Assembly: GCA_054600435.1 (NCBI GenBank)
Contig: BAAIJX010000042.1
Coordinates: 62,001 to 126,000, forward strand
Length of the DNA: 64,000 nucleotides
Direction of reading: 5' to 3'
Source: Neophaeotheca triangularis
Taxonomy: Eukaryota
The position numbers and the translations under genes are program-made. Positions 3,011-56,836 of the stretch are shown piece after piece (position 1 is the first letter of the stretch; each line of letters opens with the position of its first letter). The notes under the pieces are model-generated. The model was not told the DNA's origin, searched no databases, and worked only from the letters and a program-made list of their open reading frames with translations.

Positions 3011-4937
3011 CTAAGCGTCGGATCCGTCCGAGAATACCACATCATCCGCGGGAAGGGCAAACTTCCTCAGATCATTCTTCAGCAACGCATCAAGTCTCAA
3101 GCCGCCCTCCTCGATACTGACGCCAGTACCCGCTTGATCCTTGTTGAAGGCAGGATCCTGGACGTAGGTAAGAATCTCAGCGTAGAGATCATCGGCTCGT
3201 GGCCGCTCATTTGGGTTGGCATCCAGGCATTTGAGAACCAGAGACTTGAGCGCCTGGGAATATTTGGAGTGGGCCCAGGGCTGGAAAACGGGATATCCTG
3301 CCGGGTCTTGCAGCTCGTTTGGGAAAGGGTCGTTCAATCGGTACCGGAAACCCAAGTCAAATGGGGGAAACCTCTTAGTCCCGACGAGCGGGTTATCGAG
3401 GTTCATGAGGCCCATGATGGTGATGCCAATGCCCCAGATGTCGCTATAAGACTCGAGTCGATGGCCTTCGGGGCTTGCTGTGTCGATTGTAGGGTACATG
3501 TGCTCCTCGGGAGCACACCAGTCTGGCGTGCCCAATGGCGTCAAGGCGGTGGGATTAGCCGCCCCCTCAAGAAATTTGTCAACAATGTCCGCTGCATGTC
3601 CGAAATCGGCAAGCTACAGAGATCAGTGTGTTTCTTAGTGTCGTTTCGACGAAGATGACATACCTCGACGTTCGGGCAGTTCGGATACTTGCTGTCACTG
3701 CGAGGGACTGACAAGCACACTAGATCAAAGTCAATGTCAGCACATCTCTAGTCATCTCATTGGGAAAGAAAGCCAATGCCATGTGACACGTACCGTTTTC
3801 AGGCTTAATATCCAAGTGGGCGAGATGGCGATCCCAGCCGTCTCCCCATCCTGGCTTTCTGCCATGCCTCAAGACACATGCTGCAGTTACTAGTCCTTGA
3901 AACGCCGACCAGATGAAGTTCTCCGGTATCATTGCTGCCATCTGCTCCCCTGAAGGCTTTTTCAATCCTGCAGGGTCAGCCGCTCGTCCAAGTTGTTCAT
4001 GGTTTCTTATCAAGTCGTCCAGGTTCCCGTAAGGGCAAAAGGATAGATAAATCTTGAAGAACAGGTCGGTGTCAGCTTCTCCGTCGAGGCGATCTGTTTG
4101 CGTCCAGTTCCTGAAAGCAACGATGTTGTTGCGGCCTCGATGTCGCCTGGACGCCATACTGTGATGCCAAGCTTCCGCTAGACGCTTGCGGCCCACAGCA
4201 TCACCACCTTGCCATGTCGCTCCCAGTGGAGCTGCACCCGGACCAACCTTTTTCCTCTTGACAGCAAGACGATCCGTGATACGGCCGTTTTCATCCTTCC
4301 TAATGTACACGTATACACTTCCTTCGTTGCCTTCGCCAACCCAGTTGTCGCCAGTCCGCGGCCACTTTTTCATGCCGCTTAGTTCCTCCTTATCTGCAGT
4401 TGCTTTATCGAAAGACACCAGCATGTCGTCGTACGATGGCGGTGCCTCCAGATTGTAAGGAGCCTCGCGCCGAATTTCCTGCAATGCCGCCTGGCAAGTG
4501 TTGACCAGGGCACGCTCTTCTTCGATCAAGGAGATTTCACGGGCTGCTGATTGACCGGAACTCTGTAAGCCTTTCGGCGGGAAAGTCTTGTCAAGTTTCT
4601 CGAGTTGGTCAACCAGTGTTTGCCACGCATCTTGGTTTTGTTGAAATCTATTCGTGACATCGCTCAAGGCACGCCATTCAGCGATGGGCGTGGGATGTAA
4701 GTTTCGCCGGGTTTCCTGATCTGCCAAAGTAGCAAGGTCTTCGTAGTCCTGCAAGTTCCTGATAGAATCATCGACAGCCCTTCGCGCAGGATCATCCAAG
4801 GAGCTGAACTCGACCCTGAGCCTGGCGTCACGCTTCTGGGTTGAGATCCTTTTGGTTTTGTCGTTCGAGCGACGTTCGGCCAGCGCTCTCCCCCATGTTC
4901 GGTATCTCAGGTAGGCTGGATCTTTGGCGTTCGGCAT
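3011..4937 (-). CDS. Fungal Ser/Thr protein kinase, non-RD type, with helical N-terminal domain (paralogue 1, ~600 aa)
   Basis: Exons 4937-3794, 3719-3664, 3613-3011 joined by GT-AG introns. Motifs GEGNEG, LAVK, HLDIKPEN, LADFG, CAPE, SDIWGIG. Spliced length 1803 nt is in frame. Confidence 0.88.
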
Positions 4938-5326
4938 GCTGGGCCACGGGTGAGAGTTGGTGATTGCAACAGGGATAGATGTGATGGGCGTAGCAGCAGG
5001 CGAATCCGTATGGTTAAATCGCCTCCATTGTTCGGCGGAGCGACCTGGTCTTTCTTTGTGCAAGCCCGCATCCGGCCGTTTGCACGAACCGTCATGTCGA
5101 CAAAGATACATTCCAGGTATCATCGCTATTCGGAATAGATGCCCGATCGAAGCCGATAACCAGTCAAGAACCAACTTGTGAATATATCTATCACCAGATA
5201 ACACATGCCAAGACCAAAGTCTTAGCGTGTCTGACTTTCAGCATAGTAGCGGACCTGGCCGCGATTGCTTTGTATCAGTCTTCAGCACGGTGATAATTTC
5301 GAATAGTGTCCCTTCCCTGAAGCCTG

Positions 5327-7547
5327 TCAATCTTCTGCATCAGAAGCATCTTCGTCGACATCCATGCCATCGTAGTCCATGTCTTCTGAATCCTCCTCGT
5401 CACCTACCTCCTCGTCACCTTCTTCTCCCTCCTCGTCCTCTTCTACACCCTCATCAACGTCCATGGCCAAAAAATCCTCCTCAGCCAAGTCACCCTCATC
5501 CCCACCCTCAGCCAACTCTCCCAGAACCAACTCCTCATCCCAAATGGACCCGTCAACAAACTTGTTGTCTTGCCGATGCAACAAAGTCTCACCAGGCCCA
5601 CGTCCACCCTGCTCAATACTGAAACCCGGCATGGCAAGGTTCATTGCCTCATCCCGCACATGCGCTTGAATTTCCTCAAAAAGCTCATCGACGCGCGGCC
5701 GTGCTCTCGGATCGCCCTCAACGCACTTCAGCACCAGGACTCGGAGTTGCGGGCTGTATTTCGCTACGGCCAGGGGGGAGAATCCCAGCGGTGGATCGGT
5801 GCTTGCCAGCTCGAAGTCAGCCGGTTCCGGCCCGGTAGGATCGTCCGCTTGTACACGGTACGAGAAGCCTTCTTCGGGTGGGAAGGTGACAGGGGCAACG
5901 TAGATCCCGTCGCCTCGAGTGATGCAGTTCATCATGCTCATGATGGTCAGCCCTATGGCCCAAACGTCTGCCGAGGACTTGAGTTGCGCCGAGCCGTTCG
6001 GAACTTCGCTGCAGTATTCGTATGGCATCTGGTCGCCGGCGGCGTCCCGGTACGTGCGCTGCTCGGGGGCTTGCCAGTGGAGGCTGCCCGGTCCAATGAT
6101 GTCGAAATCTTCGGTGATCCAGTCTTCGGTTAGGTTGATCGCTAGACCGAAATCGGCGACCTGTGAGAGAGGATCGTTAGTCTACAATTGTTGGCAGTAG
6201 GTAGAGGGCTTGCGTACTTGAACATTAGCGTAGCCTGGAAACCTCCCGTCTCTGCGCGGGCCATCGAGCAAGACTATCGGATATGTTAGCAACGTCGGCA
6301 TGATGGTTTTTGAGTCGGTACTCACAATTGTCCGGTTTAAGGTCGAGATGTACCACTCGCTGCTCCCAGCTTTCACCCCAACCGGGATGTCGGCCATGCC
6401 TCATGATGCACGCAGCAGCGGTCATAGCTTGAAGAGAAGACCAGATGAAGTTTTCCGGGATCATTGCTTCAAGGATTTCTTCGTCCTTCGCACCCGAAAG
6501 CCTGCCCACCAGCTCCACGTGGGCATCGATCAAATCAGCCAGAGAGCCATGCGGACAAAAGCCCATGAATATTTTGACACTAGTATATTCGCGGGTCACT
6601 TCGTCCTCGGTCCTTTCGAAATCAGTAGTAGACCAGCCCCGGAAAGGTACTATGTTGTTGTTGTCGGGGTGGCATTGGCCTGTCAGGTAATGGAGCCAAG
6701 GTTCAGCCGGACGTTCATTGTTGACGGTGTCTCCGTTTTGCCAGAATCGGGGATCTGTCATCTCTTCGACACTATACTCAGAGTCCTTGAGGACAAGTCG
6801 ATCAACCAAATTGCCATTCGAATCGCTGCGCACGATCAGGTAAGCCGTGCCGTAACCGCCTTGTCCGAGCTTACTCGCGTCCATGCTTCCTTGCCAATAG
6901 TCTAATCCAGTAAGAGACAATGGCGTCCGGGGTGAGTCGAAGTCTGCTTCCAATTGATCGACCAATGGCAAGCCCTCGTCCGGTCTATCCCTGGGAGCAT
7001 CACGCTGCAAGACCTGCAGGATATCGAGACAAAGGTCGCCATTGAAACGCTTCGAGGCGACGATGTCGCGCTCGAGGTTTGCTAGATCTGCAGAACCCTG
7101 TAGTCCATCCGGGGGCACTTCCGCATCGATGGGGTTCAGGACATTGACAAACTCTTGCCAGACTCTCTGGCGCAATGGAAAACTTCTTGCACTGCCGGAG
7201 ATGGCGGTTAAAGCTTCCCACTCCTCGAGCGGAGTAGGGTACAGTAGTCGTCTTTCAGCGGTATTTGCCAACGCGGCGACATTATCTGGCAAATCGGGAA
7301 GACCTGCGTTCACCAGCCCCGATAAGTCCACGTTGTTAGGCAAAGGATCCGGAAGAATTCCTAAAGTGGTGAGAAGGGTGAGGATCTTCGTTCGCTCAGT
7401 GGGATTGAGAGCCGCCCACTCGTCTCTGAGTCTGTCGTCACGCTCCTTGCCTGATATGCCAGCGGCCTGATCTTCAGAGCGACGTTTGGCTAGTGCCCGA
7501 CCCCACGTCCGGTATCTGAGGAAATTGAGGTCTTTGGTATCGGACAT
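5327..7547 (-). CDS. Fungal Ser/Thr protein kinase, non-RD type, with helical N-terminal domain and acidic tail (paralogue 2, ~703 aa)
   Basis: Exons 7547-6326, 6273-6218, 6160-5327. Motifs GQGGYG, LVLK, HLDLKPDN, VADFG, QAPE, ADVWAIG; D/E-rich C-terminus. Same intron positions as paralogue 1. Confidence 0.9.
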
Positions 7548-8631
7548 GCTGGGCTGGCTTGTTCGTCCTATGGGTTCCGAGTCGAAAAGTGCTGGATTGC
7601 GTTATTCGAACAGTGATATGTGAGCACGACCAGTCTACTCTGACATGCCCAACAGCGCATTCGACATGCTGCATTGTCTTCATTGTTTCGAGGATCTAGA
7701 TTGGCTTTGTCAATCCGCTTCCGGTCATTAGGTGGTGTAGTCCGGACAAAGGTCGAGCGCCGAATCCGTGCCATAGTAGACCGCAGAGCGAGATAAGCGA
7801 TATTGGACACCGCGTGTTAGCCGCCAATCGCGAGACGACGGTCAAAAAATCTTTTCTGGTTCGGTCTTATCGCTCGACTTGAGAATCTCCCCTTGCCCCT
7901 GGTCTCGTGAGTTCGCCATCGTCCTCGCACCTCCGAGAGAAGAAGAACTGGGCGAGGCCTTTATACTCGAGCCTCAAGTCCCATGGCCTTCCTGATGCTC
8001 AGCTAACCCTTTGTGTGCCCTGAGGGTCCCATCGCCTCAAAAGCGCAATCCTAGCATTTTCCCACCTACAATTGCGTTTCTAACGTCGCGATCGTATTGG
8101 AAATGCACCGCCAGGCTCCATCATCCACGCCCTGCGCTACTCCTCCCGCTTCTCGCCCACCCGGTCCCTCAATCAGCAATGCAGTAACTCAGCAAACAAA
8201 TAGACGCCACCGCCTCGGACAAGAGAAACACCACCTACCGCAAAACAGGGCAGACTACCAACCGCCACAACGTGAAAGCCGAGAACCCACCATCGCCATC
8301 CCAATAGCAACAGGAAGTCTTTCCAGACACCCAAAATGAACACCGGCCAAGAGACAGTGGTGCGGTACCACGTAGGTACAGCCAATCCTCCTCTGTCCGG
8401 TCTCAATTCCAACTGTGCCATGACGTCCGTACGAGCAAGATCTGGCACGAGAAAGAGCGACTACTGTGGACTCGCGTAAGCGGGTGTTTGTATACCACCT
8501 GCAAGCATCGAGCGCGGTGAAGACCAACGAAGCAGAAGAGCTCGCCAAGCGGAGGCTACCGGTGACCCGACCATTCTTAATTGTCAACGGACCAGTTCCA
8601 CAACGGGCGCTAGTGCACAGACAAAAAAACC

Positions 8632-9246
8632 GTCACCGGACCGGTCTGATGACGAAAGTCGATAGGTCCGTTGCATTTATCTTCCGTAAAATATCTCCTA
8701 AGTTTTTTTTGTAGTATCTATATACGCGAGGGCTTCTAAACTAGTTCCTATACTAGATTCTATACTAGATACTATACCCTATTGAATTTAAAATCTAGTT
8801 AGTAAACTAGTTCTAAAACTAGTTTAAAATTACACGCTACTCCTAAGACGAGATACTAACACTATTGATAGCTAAACTAGTTTTTAAACTAGTTTTAAAA
8901 CTAGTTTTTTTAAGTAACTACTACTAGTGATTACGTAGTATTATTATACTAGGTAAACGCCTAGTACAGCTTTTCTAATATAGTAAAGGTAGGTAGGTAG
9001 GTAGTAGTAGTAGAGGAAGTAATTAGAAATCTAGTTTAAAACTAGTTTTGAAACTAGTTAGAACATGAAAACTAGTTATAAAACTAGTTTTTAAACTAGT
9101 TACTAATATATCTAACTTATCTAGTATAGGAACTGGTATAGGAACTAGTATAGCAAATAAGGCTTATATCTAGTATGGGAACTAGTCTAGGAAGTAATCT
9201 TACCTTTTAAGTAGTAAAAAAGAAGTCAACGGACCGGTCCGGTGAC
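8632..9246. mobile_element. Non-coding AT-rich fold-back (MITE-like) element with terminal inverted repeats and RIP-like composition
   Basis: GTCACCGGACCGGTCTGATGAC (8632-8653) matches the reverse complement of 9225-9246 at 20/22. The interior is very AT- and TpA-rich with 14 exact ACTAGT sites and internal inverted symmetry. No ORF and no clear target-site duplication. Confidence 0.65.
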
Positions 9247-9946
9247 AAAAGTGGGGTGGTGTGATGGATTTTTGCCAAGCCTTGGCAAACCTGGGGTATG
9301 GTCCGCTGACACTTTAGTTTGGTCACTTCAACTTCGGCCACCGCCAAGCGAGGATGCTGCCGGACAAAGCAACAGCGCTAAGGCGAGCCATCCCCCCACT
9401 AGCGCGATCTTTGTTCAGCCAATTAGAGACCGCAAACGGAAGTGGAAAACTCGGGCCCCGAGAGTGAATTGTGTAGTTTTGATTTTGGAACTGGGAAATC
9501 GTGATGATGGCTGGAGATAAAAGATTACTTTGAGGAGAATTTGCGGAAAAGGGGAGCGCGCGAAGAATGCGAGACGTAGGTTTATACGGCTGGCTTGTCA
9601 AGCTTTACCTCTGGCGCCCTTTCTTTCGAATCTTTTTTGATACGATTCATTGCTAGTCTACATTGCCATCAACCACGACCACGAGACCCGTTCGTGACGC
9701 CCAAAACACTGTTCCTTTACACGCAAACACCGGAGCAATGCATTCGTTCCCAGTGCCAAGTCCTTCTTCGCAACATCAGTTTCCCCCACCCGCATCTGTG
9801 TAGGTAGGTATCGCTGAAGCCGGACTCCATGACCTTTATGAAACAAATAAAACCCATGCAGACGGTGCCCAGCACTTGCGCGGGGCCCGAAAGAGAAACG
9901 CCTCTCGTCATCAAACCCAACAAGCTCCCACGGAGAAGTGAAATGA

Positions 9947-12328
9947 CTACGAAATCTCCATGCCCTCCTCACTACCCTCGCCCTCATCCCCATCAGCCCC
10001 ATCTCCATCTCCGTCCTCGACTTCCATCCTCACACCCTGGCCCTCGTCCCCGACACCTCTCCCCCTCTTCCTCCCCCACCCTCCCAGTCCAAGACCCATC
10101 GCACTCCCCAACCTCGCCCCGCCCAAGCCACCCACAGCCTCTAACTCCTCACCCCCAACAACACGCCCCTCGGCATCGACACCGACCTCACAAAGCTCGA
10201 GCATGGCGGAGCGTTTAAGCCGACGGAAAGAGTCAGTGCGGACCACGCGGCCCCAATGCGTCATGCAGAAGCTCGCGGCGCGGCGTTTGAGCCAGTCTTC
10301 TTGGGCGGTGGCCGCGCGGTCGAAAATAAGCGCCGCGTGTGGAATGTCTAAATCGCGGACGAGGCGGTGCAGGCAGAGGTGACGGAGGCGCGGCATGTCG
10401 TAAATATTGCTCATGACGAGCATGTTGGCGACGTCTTCGAGGGTTGGAGCGTTGTCTGGGGGAGAGATGGTTGCGCTATCGGACGGTGGGTTGGGTGGGG
10501 AGGTGATGCTGTCGGTGTAGAGGTAGTAGAGGAAGGCTTTGACGGCTGGGTAGGGTTCGGGGAGGTGCATCCGGCGGGTGTGGAATTCGGACATTTGCGT
10601 GTTCATCATGCGGGAGAAGTGCGGCCAGCGTGCTGCAAGTATCAGGCGGTGGACGTGGATGGGTTGGGAGGTATTGGTGGAGCTGGTGGCTGTTTCGCAT
10701 GTGCTTGCGGCGCCTGTGCCTGTTGGGGAAGTTATGGAGGCGTCGTCGCTGAGGGTTTCGAGGTCGTCGTAGGCGTCGTCACGGAGAGCGGTAATGGTGA
10801 AGTCGGTACCAGAGCCGGATTCTGGGGGTTGGTTGAAGGTGCGCGCAAGGTCTGCGCCGATTGCTGAAAGGTGAGAAGAGGCGTGGGTGTCTGATGCCGG
10901 TATTTTGGTATCGCTACGGGACTCGCCAGACATTTTGTTGCCTAGCAAGCCAAACTTGCGAAGATCTATAGGGAGAACGTCGCTCAGGTATTCTTCTGCA
11001 TCGCCATTTCCGCCCCCTCTTACTTCACGAGGACAGCCAAGGAGCCATGCATGGGTGCCATCTTGATCTAAGCAGCAATAGTGCCAGCGGTAGGTCGGTG
11101 AGAAGAGGTCTTTGCCGTCTGCGAGTTTCTGCCATCTTAGCGTATCAAGATCAAGCGCGGATAATGAAGTCTCAAGCGGCATGTTCGTGGCTGGAGTGAC
11201 GAAATCTAGCATGCAACCACTGCTGAAGACGTGGAAATGTGTACCAACATTCTGTATTGGTAGATTTGGGGATGAGATGAATTTGACGCTGGAGATAGCA
11301 CCTGGGGCGATGGGAGGTGAGCGTTGGATTTGCGTAGCGGAATTTGACTGAACAGAGCTGCTGTTCGCAGCATATCCCGTACCACCTATCACTGATGGCG
11401 AAGAGGCTCCGAATCCATAGTTGGCAAAGCGTGGGCTCAGTGGACGGGCATCATCAGATCCTGCCGTGCCGTAGCTAGGCCGGCCTTCAAATGCCGGAGT
11501 GCCTCTAAAGTCAAGCCACCAAATGTCGCTCGTTCTTTCCATCTCCTCACCCATTCCGCCAGAGACCCATATCTTCCCGCCCCAGACCCAGCTAGAGTGA
11601 TCGTAACGCGGAACAAAGCGCCATGTGCGGCTCCAGGTCCAGGTCTTGAGATCGAGGAAGCAGATGTCGTCCAGCACACCGTTGTCGTTCCCGCTCATTC
11701 CACCACATACGAACAATTTGTCGTCGTGGATGACTGCGCTATGTCTCGCCCGTCCTCTGGGTATTGGACCGTGTACATCCGGTTGTGTCCAATGTGCCGT
11801 CTTGATATCGAAAATAACAACATCTGATAGGTGTATTCTGTGCTCGTTCTCCCCGCCATATACCAATAGCTTGTCGCCCTGCCATAGACATGAGGTGTGA
11901 CCCATGCGAACGCCAGGGATATCGCCGTAGTTGTCCACCAAGCTCCATTGCCGAGCGGAGAGGTTCAGCTTGAGCACGTGGTTGTATACTTCGTCGGTGT
12001 ATTGATCGAAACCGCCGAAAGCGTAGATGAGGTCGTTGCCAACATATGTGACGGATGCGTTGACGAGACATGCTGGCCGTTGGCCTACTGTGGTAATGAT
12101 ACGAGGCATGTAGGGATCGTTGGAGGTTCGCCGGCGGCCGCTCTTCACGGGTGAGCCAGACATGACAAAGGTGTTGTTCGACATGATGGACGAGCGAGGA
12201 TGGTCACTGTCGAAGCCGTATTGAGACTGGTGGTGTTGGTGGTTGCCATTCAACCAAGCCAGCGAAGTATAAGGCGCTGGAGGTGAGGGGATACTAAGGT
12301 TGAGATTGCGGTGGAGGTTGCTGGCCAT
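9947..12328 (-). CDS. ral2: Kelch-repeat plus BTB/POZ regulatory protein (Ral2-like)
   Basis: 793-aa ORF with Kelch repeats (IYAFGG, LLVYGG, LFVCGG, IWVSGG) and a C-terminal BTB region (HVHRLILAARWPHF...FLYYLYTD). Confidence 0.8.
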   Translation of the reverse strand: MASNLHRNLNLSIPSPPAPYTSLAWLNGNHQHHQSQYGFDSDHPRSSIMSNNTFVMSGSPVKSGRRRTSNDPYMPRIITTVGQRPACLVNASVTYVGNDLIYAFGGFDQYTDEVYNHVLKLNLSARQWSLVDNYGDIPGVRMGHTSCLWQGDKLLVYGGENEHRIHLSDVVIFDIKTAHWTQPDVHGPIPRGRARHSAVIHDDKLFVCGGMSGNDNGVLDDICFLDLKTWTWSRTWRFVPRYDHSSWVWGGKIWVSGGMGEEMERTSDIWWLDFRGTPAFEGRPSYGTAGSDDARPLSPRFANYGFGASSPSVIGGTGYAANSSSVQSNSATQIQRSPPIAPGAISSVKFISSPNLPIQNVGTHFHVFSSGCMLDFVTPATNMPLETSLSALDLDTLRWQKLADGKDLFSPTYRWHYCCLDQDGTHAWLLGCPREVRGGGNGDAEEYLSDVLPIDLRKFGLLGNKMSGESRSDTKIPASDTHASSHLSAIGADLARTFNQPPESGSGTDFTITALRDDAYDDLETLSDDASITSPTGTGAASTCETATSSTNTSQPIHVHRLILAARWPHFSRMMNTQMSEFHTRRMHLPEPYPAVKAFLYYLYTDSITSPPNPPSDSATISPPDNAPTLEDVANMLVMSNIYDMPRLRHLCLHRLVRDLDIPHAALIFDRAATAQEDWLKRRAASFCMTHWGRVVRTDSFRRLKRSAMLELCEVGVDAEGRVVGGEELEAVGGLGGARLGSAMGLGLGGWGRKRGRGVGDEGQGVRMEVEDGDGDGADGDEGEGSEEGMEIS

Positions 12329-35744: not shown

Positions 35745-36852
35745 CGACTCTCCTTGTTACAACTCTCGATACCCCGGCATCCGATTCTTCCTTTTTCGCT
35801 TACGCACACCGCTTATAGAGGTGGTCAGAGACCGCGAGGCACATCTGCTGCTTATGGGGGAGGCAAAGGCTTTTCTAGGTCAGGGAAAAGTTCTGGGTCC
35901 GACATGTTTGAGCGGACCGGATCGAAATTGCTGTTTTTATTTTATTTGGGGGCGTGGCGCGTTTGGTGATGCCAGCTAGCTGCCCAGGAGGACCCTTCTC
36001 CCTTCCGTGCTTGTTTCAGCACGATGGGAGCTGAGCAGGAGGCAGCGTGTGTGGGCGGGTGGCTCGGTGCTTGTTTGCGCCTTTTATGGATGAGCGTTCT
36101 TGTACCATAATGAGCTCTTCCGGCTCTTGCCAGCGGACAGCGCTGACATTTAATTGCTTTGTCCTTCACAAATCACGAATTGCACTGCGATGACTTTTTG
36201 GCCAGGGGACGAGATTCGTGCGGTGCCAAAGCCTCGTCGTTGATTGCGCCATCCCTGCTCTCCGCCAGATAGACGTCGTCTAGAATCGACCCGCGTGCAT
36301 GCCCGCTGCTGCTGTGCAACTCCTCCCACGATACCTATGCAGTACAACCGACAAGCTGCGCAGTATTAATGCCACGCACCTGCAGCCACGGTTCTGTGTA
36401 ACCAGACTTGTAGAAGTTCTGCAGGCCGATGCTCGTGCCAGAGGGTAGACTTGGGAGTCTGACGAAAGCCGACCTGAGGAAGCAGAGCTCTTGCAAGAAA
36501 AAATTCCTCGACTGCATGAAAACCATGCCCGAGCCATGACACTGGGCAGTACCTTAAGCGAGTGAGTGACTACTACTGGGCCGGACAGCTGGCAAGCTGC
36601 AACTCACTACTACTGCTGTCCTGTCAGGTCGGCGATGGAGCTGTCGCTACTACTACAGGCTCGCCACACTGCATGCCTACGTACGGTAACTACATGACTA
36701 CTCCATGCAGGCAATGCAGCCCTTTTCCCGCCTTGTGCGTGCAAGAGCCTGGCGCATCTTCCTGGCATTCTTGCAATACTAATGATGATTGCGTGCTGCT
36801 AAGTTGGCACTTGCATACACTAATGAGGTACTACGGTCACTACCTAAGGTAC

Positions 36853-36896
36853 CTACTACGACTACTACTACTACTACTACTACTACTCCTACTACG
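36853..36896. repeat. Imperfect (CTA)n microsatellite
   Basis: Direct reading: ctactacgactactactactactactactactactcctactac. Confidence 0.9.
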
Positions 36897-39757
36897 ACCT
36901 GCTCTCTTCAGGTCGGGTACCTCCCACGCATCGCATGTACATGCGGAGCACGGGCGGGTTTCTTGGCCTTCGCCTGAGTGCTTTGCCGTCCTCCGGGCCC
37001 AGTCAGGTCGGCTCCGCTTCACACCCTCGATATTATCTACGGATACATTATTATTATTATTATCATTTACGAGCTCGAGGACGGCAGAACGTCCAACGCC
37101 ATCTTGCGACGGCTTCCATTATCTTTATTAGTCGGCCCGCTGAAGCTTTCAGGGTGCAGTCCGCTCCCTCCTACTACTACTGCAACTCATAGCGAGCTGA
37201 AGCTTCCACCTCCCTAGTAGTGACTAGTCCCTCTCTCTGCCTCTGGACCCTAGTAGGTAGACGAGGTGAAGGTGTTCGCCTTGCGCGGACAGGGATCATG
37301 GGCCAACGGAAGATCTGTGGTTCCAATAACTTAATGCCCGTCATCTCTAGCTTGACGGCCAGCCTTTGCTCGAGCTCTGTTGCTGGTCGGCCCGCCGCTT
37401 GCTGCTTGCACGTCCGCTTGACTTTTCTTTTCGCTGCTGTGTTGTGTCGAGCGGCGGCGCGAACGTCGGGGTTTGGGTCACTTGGTTGGGTACTTTCACC
37501 TGTTGACTCGGTTGAAGGCTGAGCGTGTACTCAGTGGTTCAACTAGCGACATCCTCCGCTTTACGGAAGGTTTTCTTCAGCTACTTATTAGGTGTGTAGT
37601 GTGTACTTCCGAAATGGGTACGAAGGAGCTGCACGCCTGCTTCTTATCGCGCGAACCTTTTCTTTTGATCGACGTGTCTTACGATTAGCTTTCGTTCGAA
37701 TGGAGACAGTACTCCAGTAGCTAGTAGTATGCTCAGGTTTCCCGAGTCATGACCCACCACCATGGCAGTACTACGGTCGGAACAACTGCGACAAGTACAC
37801 GACTACTACTACTGTTGATTGTACCAAGTTGCGCCTCTTCAGTCGCAAGTGACATTCGGACTGCACCTGTCAGTCACTTGACCGAGATCAACGGCATTTC
37901 CACGGGTCGGAACCGCATACGCTTCTCCGTATAAGGTAGGTAGGTGATTTTGTATATCCTGTTGATTACTGTGTCCTCGATCGCATCTGACGACCATTGT
38001 CAAAGATTCCTAGAGAGTACTGTAATGCTTGGAAGCCCTAGGGCCGGCTTCCTATCTCCTCCACCTCTCGGCCTTGATTCACACATCATAGAGAGACTCG
38101 TTGCGGAGCGCCACCTTCTTAGTGCCATGACACTCTGCCCACTTAGCGCCGCCTGTCCAGCGTGGAGCTCGCCTGTCATCCCTCATCAGTTAGTTCAATC
38201 CACTACTCCCCACCAAGTCTACTATTATACCAAAGATGACTGAGGCCCTCAGTGACGAATCGACCACTAAAAGAGGGCGAAGTCGATTACAGTCCCACTG
38301 GCCACCCGTGTACTGTGCCCTCCCTTCTTGAAAAAGAATCAGAATGATTTCTGTCAAGAATGGTATCTTGTCCGTCAATTTTCGAGTAGGGGCTATCAAG
38401 TGATCGTCCCGAGCTCCAAAGCCTGGCTTAACAGGCTAGTTAACAGCTACATAGTAATATGTACCCACCCACCTCCTCTCCACTTCTGACATCTCCAGAG
38501 TCCCGGAGTCAATAATCATAATAATCCCAATCAACTACAGTGAGAACTATTGCTCCACTAGTGGAGTCTAGTCCTAGAGTTACGCCATCTGCTGACAGTT
38601 TGATGATTCGTGACAGCAGCTGACCTTCGACACTTCTTGCTCCTCTTCACTACTGCTACTTGTCCCCCCTCGTGTTTGCCCGACCTCCGTCGATACTCGA
38701 TACCTCTTGTGTACCTTCTTGCTCCATGTTTCTCCCAGCCCTACAGGCCAGGGCATCTTCAAACCGGTCGGGTTGCCAAAACTTGGGAGTTTCAAGCAAG
38801 CCTGAGGTACGCGGTAGAGGCTCTACACCGAGAGTATCATGGGTGTTGTGTTGTACGCAGTCGCGCTTGAAGTCCATGCACCTGATACCTTAAAGTTCTC
38901 CGCCAAGCGACTCGTCTGTTGACATTTATCTCCCTTATCGCTTTCTCCTCAACTCGCGCGGGACGAGCAATGCCACCGTGTCTCAACATGTTATCCTCAA
39001 CAAGCTGTCATCTATCGTGACGGCCATCGGAGGAAGAAAGCTGAACTACATTCACGTAGCCTCTAAAACCCTGTGCAGGACGAAATGCGAAGCCAACCCG
39101 TATCTGAACCATGTTCCGACACTGGCTCCCGCAGATGATACCCTTCTACATGCCACCTGATACTGGCCCTTCAGCGGATGTCAGTGGTGCAGCTCATAGC
39201 CGCAACTGGCAAATGAAGCGCTCGCCCATCAGACCACTGCGACCAGACGTCCCGCGAGTCAAGTAGCCAGACTAGACGAAAAGACCACAGACATCGCACT
39301 TCTTCCATGTCAGCTGCTTTACATAGTAGATCTTTACCAACGGACACCAGCTGGAGTCAACATCGGCATGGTGTCCGACGTCTACTCCAAGCGACTGATA
39401 CTGCTTCAAGTTGGCGGAAGGATCAAGCACACAGTGCTTTCCATCGGCGCCTGTATCGCTACTTGTGCTCTGCTGTTACAGTTGTCGGCCTGCGAGCCTG
39501 CCATCTCGAAGCCAGATATTGAATGGTTTCATTTCTGCCAACATTCGACACCAGTATGCTGCCTCCAGAGTACCGTGACGAAGACTTGGCTATCTATGGA
39601 TTGCCCCCCAAAGCGACTAGTTCTACCTCCTAAATCGCATCCACGGCTTAGCGCAGCTCAGTAAGACAAGGATCGACCAAGTGTCCGAGTCCGCTATTCA
39701 GGGGAAGGCAGCTGAAGCGGAAGCGGGCATTGACAACTGTGCGCTTGAGTGTGGTGG

Positions 39758-47010: not shown

Positions 47011-48646
47011 ATGATGATGACCCAATCCTACTTCGCCAACGGAGAGTTCGACCCGTTCCATCAGGCCAACCACAGAGTTTTGCCGAACCATCATCACAGC
47101 AACTACGAACGCTCCCTTCCATACGACTACTACGACGGGCATCGCTCTTCTTACCCTGATCATGGCAGTCGACCCACTCGAATCCCCATTAATCACCCTC
47201 AGGGCAACAACGATAGTGCGCAGGAGAGGAAGCGTATCTCGGTTGCAGTGAGTCTCGATCTTTTAGTATGGGAGCATCAGCCGCTGATCTTGAACAGTGC
47301 TCACGATGCAGAAGGAGAAAGATCAAATGCAGTGGTGAACTCAAAGACGGGCCGGGATGCCAGGCTTGTAGGGCTTCAGGCGCCGATGTTTCCCAGTGCA
47401 GTTTTATTCGAGTGAGTTTGTCCGCTTCGGTTTTGGAAGTTGGCGGCTAACCTTTGATTAGGTCGGGAGTTTTACCCCTGCTGGCGCTGATGCCGTCCAC
47501 CCGATCCAGAGTAGAGAGGGCGCTGGCACTACCTACTCTTCCAGCTACCCAGACGCTTCTTCAGCTTCAAACTACAACCAGACCCTCTACCACAGGCCTT
47601 CAATACCCACGCTTCAAACTCGTTCCGCCTACGCCACCGACTATGACAGCCAGTACGAGAACTCTCCGGTCGACGGCTATTCTTACTCCACTGGTCGACA
47701 AGATTCCTTTACAGGCTCATACGGCCAGCCAGAGAACTACCGTTCCTGGACCGCAGCCGCTCCAGTACCTGCATCTGTGAGCAACGGCACCTACTATGAG
47801 CCGCACTATGTTTACAACTACGGCAACGTCAACATGCAAAGTCCAGCCTACTCGCAAAGCCGCAACAGCCGCCTGCCCAGCGTGACGAGCGACAATAACT
47901 ACTCTTCACTCAACATGTCCGTTTTACAATCTTGTCTGCCGCCAGCAGACCGTCAGCTCCCCAAACCATGTCCACAGTACCAAACCCAACCAACATACCC
48001 CGTCACCGAAGTTCCAGTCATCCCACCCATCGCAGCCCCTCGTCCTCACATCAACGGCATCCACAGCCGCACCGCCATCCCTTGGTCCACCGACAGCAAC
48101 CCGTCACTCGTCCGGCAATCTTCTCGAAACAGCCTCGCTGCTCTCGGCGGCATCATGACCACCACCAGTGCTCCCTCGACCACTAACCCCGTAACCGAAT
48201 CGGCTTTCGGCTACCAATTCGCCCCCAACACCCTCCTACCGCCTCAACCCAACAGCCCCGTCTCCCCTTCCAGCGGCCCAGGAGCCCCCAACAACTCGCC
48301 CCCCTACCACACTTCATCAGCCCCGGAAACCTTCGGCACACTCTCCATGCGTCCACCCACATGCTGCACGCCCCGCCTCCAACCCGACCTCATCGAAGAA
48401 CGTCCCCTTTCCTCCTCCCACGACCCGGCTGCCAGTCTCTACTCTTTCAGCACCGACAACACTCACGAGACCAGGGCTGCTCAGCAGACTCCCGCTGGCT
48501 CTAGAAGACCTTCGCAACAGCAGCCGCAGCATGTCAGTAGTCTGGACAGCTTGAGGCGACAGGCGAGCTTTGAGCAGCAGCAGCATCAGCAGCAGCGTGG
48601 TGCTGGTCACCGCATCTCCGTCTCGAATTTGAACAGTCAGTACTGA
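47011..48646 (+). CDS. Zn(II)2Cys6 transcription factor with low-complexity C-terminus (~511 aa)
   Basis: Exons 47011-47247, 47298-47411, 47462-48646 give RKRISVA-CSRCRRRKIKCSGELKDGPGCQACRASGADVSQC. Spliced length 1536 nt is in frame. Confidence 0.88.
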
Positions 48647-55768: not shown

Positions 55769-56362
55769 GATTTGTACTAGCAGTTGTAGCGGAATTGGCA
55801 AAAAATCGGAAGTTGGTGTGGGAGGGATGTATGTAGTAGAGTTGTTTGATGCTTTCTCGCAGCTCAGCTTTACCTTGATTCGATAGATTGAGGTTGAGCG
55901 TCGTCCAGGCCAGGCAGGATAACGGGCTTAGCCGGAGCTAGTGTTTAGGTGAGAGTAACGCACCAAGTACCTATACTGGATGGTACTAGTATTCCCTTCT
56001 CTTCACTACCTCGGTACTGACAGGCAATATCATGGAAGAAATGACTGTCTGTCGATTGATTCGGTCGAATAACCACCATTCGAATAAGTATGCCTCAGGC
56101 GGGAATAGATAGAGACAACGCACACCGACGAAGCGAAGATAGCCAAGGCGGGCATACATACTTAAGTACCTTATCTACTACTTGGATAGAGGTAGTCGTT
56201 ATCGATAAAGAGATACCGCACCTTACGTGAGGTGGGGTGGGGTTGGAGAGCCCCGCCCCGCGCCATCCACTATTGCCAAGGACGCTCACCGCCACCACCG
56301 CCACCACTATCGACACGTGGGAAACGACGACTACATAAGGTACCTTCCAGATTATACCTACA

Positions 56363-56408
56363 TACCTACTAGTATACATACCTACTAGTAGGTATGTACT
56401 AGTAGGTA
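56363..56408. repeat. Near-perfect DNA palindrome in the divergent helicase/dehydrogenase intergenic region
   Basis: Perfect 24-bp palindrome TACATACCTACTAGTAGGTATGTA (56375-56398), extended by TACCTACTAG/CTAGTAGGTA arms with a 2-nt bulge. Confidence 0.9.
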
Positions 56409-56836
56409 CGGTACGGTAGGTTAGGTACCGGGAGGAGCAAGAAAGAAACCGTACGTATATGTAGGTAAGGTAGCTAAGGTACCGTGTTCAACACACAAAC
56501 AACAACTGCCGGCGTTCAGCGTAATGAGCAACCCTTGCTTCATCGCGCAGTGGGGAGCTTCATGTCGTCACAGTCGACGATTTCGAGCCTCGCCTATCGA
56601 CATATGACATCGATATTTGTATATCCCTGAGCTGGTGCTATACTAGACTACCTGCACTAGTACTGACTTCCAATACCTACCCAACATCCACGTGGGCCAA
56701 GTGAATAAAGAGGCCAATCCAAGTCGCCTTCCATTTCTTTCCTTCCCTATCTCTTCATCTTCCCTTTCGCACCACCCAAACCCAATCTTCCCCCTCTTCT
56801 ACCAACAAGAAGCCCCCCCTCAATAAACCCTTCAAC

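Follow-up and report, generated by a model that had tools for sequence, protein, structure and literature searches.

The segment at positions 8552-9341 of the window (the whole 64,000-nucleotide stretch of DNA that was analyzed) is, with a probability of roughly 0.8, a non-autonomous fold-back transposon of class II (cut-and-paste type) with a length of 790 bp; that it is a mobile, non-autonomous DNA transposon can be stated with greater confidence still, and its assignment to the Mutator/Foldback superfamily, made by analogy, is a cautious preference. The segment qualifies as a transposable element since it is present or absent at exact bases, is bounded by a clean target-site duplication (TSD), and has a second copy with a different TSD. 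A first-pass annotation of this locus had proposed either a non-autonomous fold-back transposon with phased repeats or a protein-binding chromosomal element; two empty sites and the TSD of the second copy demonstrate mobility and bear out the former proposal. The internal repeats of the element are unusually regular, but it is ordinary selfish DNA and not an element of chromosome function; its description as a new MITE family is plausible.

The boundaries were obtained from Logan contigs (assembled contigs rather than raw reads) of four public runs, X1 to X4, that were mapped onto window positions 7000-11000. Run X3 is another sample of the window's organism, X4 represents a second organism, X2 is an estuary metagenome, and X1 is the probable source sample; as X1 probably is the sample behind the window's assembly, it lends that assembly no independent support. 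The 790 bp are missing at the same site in X3 and X4. A 337-nt contig of X3 spans 8381-8551, continues into the right flank, and holds the 9-mer CGCCAAGCG once; its junction is effectively 8551 to 9351, since the 10 letters placed "between" the two parts are those of window positions 9351-9360. The contig of X4, 151 nt in length, links 8542 to 9342 through 9 letters that are compatible with both sides. The empty site in both samples consists of one copy of the 9-mer and no footprint; the coverage gaps of X3 and X4 within 8552-9341 count only because contigs join across them. In the window, the same 9-mer occurs on both flanks of the non-coding, fold-back element, at 8543-8551 on the left and as a perfect match at 9342-9350 on the right (element and TSD copies carry no strand assignment); together with the X3 and X4 junctions, these flanking copies identify 8552-9341 as an insertion with a perfect 9-bp TSD. 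Run X2 contributed four contigs of 151 nt that match the window exactly; one lies within the element at 9119-9269, but since none bridges a junction, X2 is uninformative on presence or absence at the site.

The junctions and the TSD replace the ends at 8632-9246 that had been assigned in the first-pass annotation, where it was also stated that no clear TSD could be seen; the search for empty sites in other samples, suggested there as a check for a MITE, was successful in X3 and X4. The insertion appears to postdate the split from X3. With its exact ends, its TSD, and its presence/absence polymorphism, this recently mobile transposon can serve as a strain marker and as a starting point in the search for the active transposase.

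The contigs of X1 that cover the flanks stop at 8581 and restart at 9312, 30 nt into the element, which fits a second copy, since at these points the 31-mers become common to another locus. One X1 contig carries foreign letters before 8552 and another carries foreign letters behind 9341 (one contig for each junction of the second copy), and both foreign flanks have the 9-mer AAGTTAGGT at the junctions. The same terminal bases with different flanks and with their own 9-bp duplication, AAGTTAGGT, indicate at least one more copy elsewhere in the X1 genome. Two further X1 records (3 and 5) are diverged interior copies that differ by 22 and 24 letters and by indels, among them the lack of one 12-bp unit. 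The copy count is at least two in X1 and one in the 64-kb window, where no other copies of the element were found; one further copy is documented beyond the window's own, and MITEs typically have high copy numbers. The TSD measures 9 bp in both documented insertions (2/2), which have no common target motif.

The flank of the second copy has approximately 12 letters (GGTACCTTCCAG) in common with the left arm of a small palindromic structure at 56339-56485 of the window; on the basis of this shared stretch, the second copy may sit inside another dispersed repeat. The structure is intergenic between a DDX60-like helicase ORF and an ADH-like ORF, and consists of GGTACC-ended inverted arms (26 nt, 73%) around 16-nt repeats TACATACCTACTAGTA and perfect ACTAGT-centred palindromes.

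With a GC content of approximately 0.54, the window looks like gene-dense nuclear ascomycete DNA; its long ORFs include RPB2, CDC20/Fizzy, a cyclophilin-RRM protein, DEAD-box helicases, MFS transporters, and a Kelch-BTB protein whose nearest Atlas clusters are mostly from Ascomycota. According to the ORF coordinates, the insertion lies between two minus-strand genes, approximately 0.6 kb downstream of the Kelch-BTB ORF and approximately 1 kb upstream of a kinase-like gene (6228-7601; measured to its ATG), whose promoter region it may alter. A coding exon at the insertion site was considered and rejected; the frame that is open at 8424-8714 has no ATG and no support. The minus-strand region 3723-7601 contains a tandem pair of paralogs (39% identity over 415 aa, E 5e-85) that share the kinase-like motif HLD(I/L)KP(E/D)N, yet have no Pfam match at 1e-5; the element is located in the upstream region of the second of these paralogs.

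An old local structure or chromosomal cis-element, lost in X3 and X4 by recombination between the 9-bp repeats, is highly improbable at this locus. It would account for the phased palindromic sites, for the CGG-N6-CCG-like cores held by the palindromes, and for the sole AT-rich island of the window, which the first-pass annotation had correctly recognized (no other stretch has a GC content below 0.42 in 500-bp windows). Yet two independent samples lack the segment at exactly the same bases, the position is not fixed, as the second copy in X1 with its different 9-bp duplication demonstrates, and presence/absence polymorphism is not to be expected of an essential element; the neighborhood with RPB2, CDC20, and helicases is gene-dense. 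The absence of the segment from the locus in X3 and X4, its other site in X1, and the gene-dense surroundings also remove the centromere core, origin, or boundary that had been offered as the alternative to a transposon.

The transposon is non-autonomous since it lacks coding capacity. Only two ATG-initiated ORFs of at least 30 aa, one of 37 aa and one of 30 aa, overlap 8552-9341; both lie at the left terminus, and the interior of the element has none, consistent with the earlier statement that there is no transposase inside. Transposases were also not found among 21 long ORFs of the window (chosen from 52 of at least 180 aa) that were scanned against Pfam. An Rfam scan of the element gave no family at gathering score, and only hairpin matches below it; for example, mir-303 reached 32.2 bits, where its gathering score is 77.

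The terminal inverted repeats are imperfect and weak, with 29 of 43 positions matching when counted on the alignment. The left repeat (8552-8594, plus strand) starts with GAGGC, and the reverse complement of the right repeat (9299-9341, minus strand) starts with GTGGC. Both contain the box GTCAnCGGACC at the same offset, nt 32-42 from the respective end (8583-8593 on the plus strand, 9300-9310 on the minus strand), which makes the two boxes candidate transposase-binding sites; exact matches to GTCAnCGGACC in the window are confined to the element, where the box recurs within two subterminal 22-bp palindromes. These palindromes (8632-8653 on the left, imperfect, and 9225-9246 on the right; no strand assigned) are the sequences that the first-pass annotation had taken for the terminal repeats: the inverted repeat that they form is real, at 91% complementarity over 22 nt, and a 15-mer of it has four matches in the window vs. 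0.14 expected, but they are self-palindromic subterminal boxes, set back from the true termini by 80 and 95 bp. Since each 22-mer is itself an imperfect palindrome, these ends can also be read as a 56-nt direct repeat (73%). The right terminal region additionally holds a 19-nt palindrome, TTGCCAAGCCTTGGCAA, at 9270-9290, which has no counterpart in the left terminus.

Inward from each end, the terminus with its box is followed by the 22-bp palindrome, a spacer, the TTCTATACTAGA/CTAGTATAGGAA arrays, the AAACTAGTTT arrays, and the center. In the interior, the palindrome AACTAGTT recurs in 12-bp tandem arrays that mirror each other. Tandem Repeats Finder detected period-12 arrays at 8734-8777, 8789-8829, 8873-8909, 9026-9101, and 9121-9193. 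The first of these, on the plus strand, contains 3.7 copies of the 12-bp unit TTCTATACTAGA and mirrors the last, which is located on the minus strand, contains six copies of the 12-bp unit CTAGTATAGGAA, and is inverted relative to its counterpart. The inner arrays consist of AAACTAGTTT units (no strand assigned); on the left (8789-8909) they are in 12-bp phase, with a 43-bp unique spacer between the two blocks, and on the right they occupy 9026-9101. The apex of the fold-back is a central (AGGT)n/(TAG)n microsatellite at 8987-9012 (no strand assigned), within a short unique stretch and including an (AGGT)4.5 tract at 8987-9004 found by Tandem Repeats Finder; this type of microsatellite is found elsewhere in the window too. 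All coordinates that had been listed for ACTAGT (8806/8818, 8876/8888/8900, 9041/9053, and 9071/9083/9095) were correct. The motif has 14 of its 27 window sites in 8740-9186, where the expectation for the whole window is 8.57; all 12 window matches to AAACTAGTTT with at most one mismatch fall within 8738-9102 (1.06 expected), and 11 of the 23 intervals between consecutive CTAG sites in the element are exactly 12 bp.

The two halves are inverted copies of each other, built from 12-bp tandem sub-repeats. The mirrored stretches at 8741-8758 and 9119-9136, already noticed in the first reading of the sequence, are part of a 36-nt inverted repeat (89%), and over approximately 370 nt the left arm can be aligned, with gaps, to the reverse-complemented right arm. 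Folded as DNA, the entire 790 nt fold back from the outermost bases at -131.2 kcal/mol, compared to -75.75 +/- 3.97 kcal/mol in 20 shuffles (z -13.97). Part of this signal is trivial, given that AAACTAGTTT is self-complementary, yet the non-palindromic arrays and the termini do lie in mirrored order. The matching termini, the equidistant boxes, and the alignment of the arms provide the terminal inverted repeats that characterize class II elements.

The composition of the interior raises the question of repeat-induced point mutation (RIP). Possibly, although this reading is held at less than even odds, the AT/TA-rich interior has arisen by RIP from arrays that were once richer in GC, for example by conversion of ACCGGT via ACCAGT or ACTGGT to ACTAGT; the termini would then have escaped, or would have been kept by selection for mobility. 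The interior (8701-9199) has a TpA/ApT ratio of 2.68 and a (CpA+TpG)/(ApC+GpT) ratio of 0.18, with 5 CpA observed vs. 23 expected, 8 TpG vs. 28, and 99 TpA vs. 63, counts that are not independent since two 12-mer families lacking CA and TG dominate this region; the indices of the element's ends and flanks are near normal. The 19 ACYRGT sites form a gradient from the GC-rich ends (ACCGGT at 8558, 8640, and 9233) via ACCAGT (8591) and ACTGGT (9132) to the 14 ACTAGT sites of the interior, as would fit a stepwise C-to-T decay. Conversely, the 52 mismatches between left and right arm comprise 17 transitions and 35 transversions, transitions account for 21 of the 42 changed places between the X1 copies and the window, and CpA and TpG are retained in the termini of the element itself. 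A further point against RIP is the preference for CpA over CpG in most fungi (PMC2621366, excerpts). With no excess of transitions, and with dinucleotide counts that largely reflect two 12-mers, ancestral RIP is no more than a possibility, visible as composition only. In Neurospora, RIP senses homology that is spaced at 11-12 bp (PMC4858203, excerpts). By analogy, arrays in 12-bp phase would be an ideal substrate for such sensing; this is a weaker point, offered as an idea only, which if true would explain why the RIP-like signature is limited to the arrays. Elsewhere in the window, raised TpA/ApT (1.6-1.9) and lowered (CpA+TpG)/(ApC+GpT) ratios (0.58-0.90) at normal GC content were found at 36601-37900, 47401-47900, and 56001-56700; these segments could be mildly RIP-like or could represent TA-rich promoter sequence.

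Relatives of the element were sought beyond the window. A metagenome scan with the pattern GTCANCGGACCN{30,60}GTCANCGGACC returned at least 120 loci; a blastn comparison of the element to the 120 loci listed gave no match at E <= 1e-3 and only words of 13-15 nt at E <= 10. Among these 120 listed matches, 46 belong to one unrelated repeat ending in (TTAC)n (24 of the 46 were aligned), which was retrieved only because it holds two GTCAnCGGACC words. This repeat (loci L003, L005, L008, and others) is abundant in a few metagenomes, has a GC content of approximately 0.45 and a conserved block of approximately 300 bp, and resembles the 3' terminus of a retroelement or SINE. A search for three AACTAGTT units at 12-bp phase gave seven loci in prokaryote genomes and two in viral contigs; all nine were rejected as short, perfect 12-bp minisatellites in unrelated DNA, whose likeness to the element is limited to the repeat. 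In the plasmid collection, blastn with the element gave no match.

A 9-bp duplication without a common target motif is a hallmark of Mutator-like elements; hAT and P elements generate TSDs of 8 or 7-8 bp, Tc1/mariner elements duplicate TA, PIF elements 3 bp, and piggyBac elements TTAA. The element combines a TSD of this length, within the Mutator/MULE range of 8-11 bp, with composite terminal inverted repeats that are built from mirrored period-12 arrays. Since no transposase partner was seen among the ORFs scanned, the superfamily call is drawn from TSD length and architecture. That the element belongs to a superfamily other than Mutator/Foldback (hAT, Merlin, P, or one not yet classified) is improbable: no transposase was seen, the TSD length is the only superfamily character, and the termini fit no testable motif, but the duplication is exactly 9 bp in both documented insertions, with no target motif in common, and MULE transposases are documented together with fold-back terminal repeats of tandem sub-repeats and 9-bp TSDs (PMC3169594, excerpts).

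For the preferred Mutator/Foldback reading, the motif-free 9-bp TSD and the precedents of Tm1 and Epichloe elements point to a MULE-type transposase acting in trans. Such an enzyme, encoded elsewhere, would move the element and make 9-bp staggered cuts in the target; most likely it would be Mutator-like (MULE, Mutator/Foldback group) and would recognize the termini and boxes, the equidistant GTCAnCGGACC boxes being the likeliest candidate binding sites. The 12-bp AACTAGTT arrays would have grown by slippage or unequal exchange, and may act as extra binding sites.

As a family label, kinship with the MATE elements of Aspergillus nidulans, of which the element would be a miniature form, is conceivable but doubtful; a Mutator-type enzyme would still be compatible with it. 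MATE elements, as Clutterbuck is said to have described them in 2004, have TSDs of 9-10 bp, paired palindromes close to both ends, and clusters of numerous "Spe-motifs" of the form RWCTAGWY; they are reportedly 6.1 kb in length, with 40-bp palindromes, and form a low-copy dispersed repeat with RIP-like mutation. Compared by description only, the element resembles MATE/AMA1 in its low copy number, its 9-bp TSD, the palindrome located 80-95 bp from each end, the clustering of RWCTAGWY (14 of the 21 window matches fall in the element), and the RIP-like composition. In contrast to the reported 6.1 kb and 40-bp palindromes, the element measures 790 bp and its palindromes 22 bp; as a motif, RWCTAGWY is short and degenerate, and the ascomycete host is not necessarily near Aspergillus. 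Replicator activity, a further difference, belongs to AMA1, the A. nidulans plasmid replicator, which is an inverted duplication of a MATE element (Aleksenko and Clutterbuck, 1996, 1997, excerpts). It would be a long shot, argued by analogy, that a still-mobile miniature MATE relative in a distant ascomycete, with a phased AACTAGTT inverted duplication mimicking AMA1, could promote plasmid replication; if so, it would provide a portable replicator of approximately 0.8 kb, with high-frequency transformation, for fungi that lack one, and would connect the MATE family, which is unclassified, with the Mutator/Foldback group. Kinship with MATE/AMA1, if it held, would also bear on the origin of fungal plasmid replicators.

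The Tm1 family of root-knot nematodes (Meloidogyne) has composite terminal inverted repeats of approximately 14-bp tandem repeats and 9-bp TSDs without target consensus, and includes MITE-like members as well as a MULE (Phantom-type) transposase (PMC3169594, excerpts). The element shares with Tm1, as far as the excerpted account goes, the 9-bp TSDs without consensus, the inverted arms of short tandem repeats (approximately 14 bp in Tm1, 12 bp in the element), the slightly asymmetric outermost termini, and the non-coding organization of MITE-like members of approximately 1 kb; it differs in that Tm1 has a nematode host, no sequence relation to the element, and a known transposase, whereas the repeat unit of the element is a palindrome with a CTAG core. 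Drosophila FB as well as FARE and Tnr8 of plants are further fold-back elements (named in PMC3169594, excerpts). They resemble the window's element in that inverted arms of tandem sub-repeats make up most of their length; they differ, compared by description only, in kingdom, repeat unit, and size. Among fungi, the Epichloe MITEs EFT-24m and EFT-26m have 9-bp TSDs and terminal inverted repeats of 115-116 bp, and have been placed in Mutator; EFT-26 is similar to the Hop transposase and appears as a Hop-like autonomous relic (PMC3227409, excerpts). The Epichloe festucae elements share with the window's element an ascomycete host, the 9-bp TSD, long terminal inverted repeats, and the lack of coding sequence; compared by description only, they differ in their length of 364-380 bp, in their tens of copies, and in their high degeneracy, and phased 12-bp palindrome arrays are not reported in the excerpts. 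Fold-back transposons with phased sub-repeats have seldom been described in ascomycetes, and a full-text literature search found none there. By analogy, the element would be closest in architecture to Tm1 and other fold-back elements, and closest in host and TSD to the Mutator-type MITEs of Epichloe.
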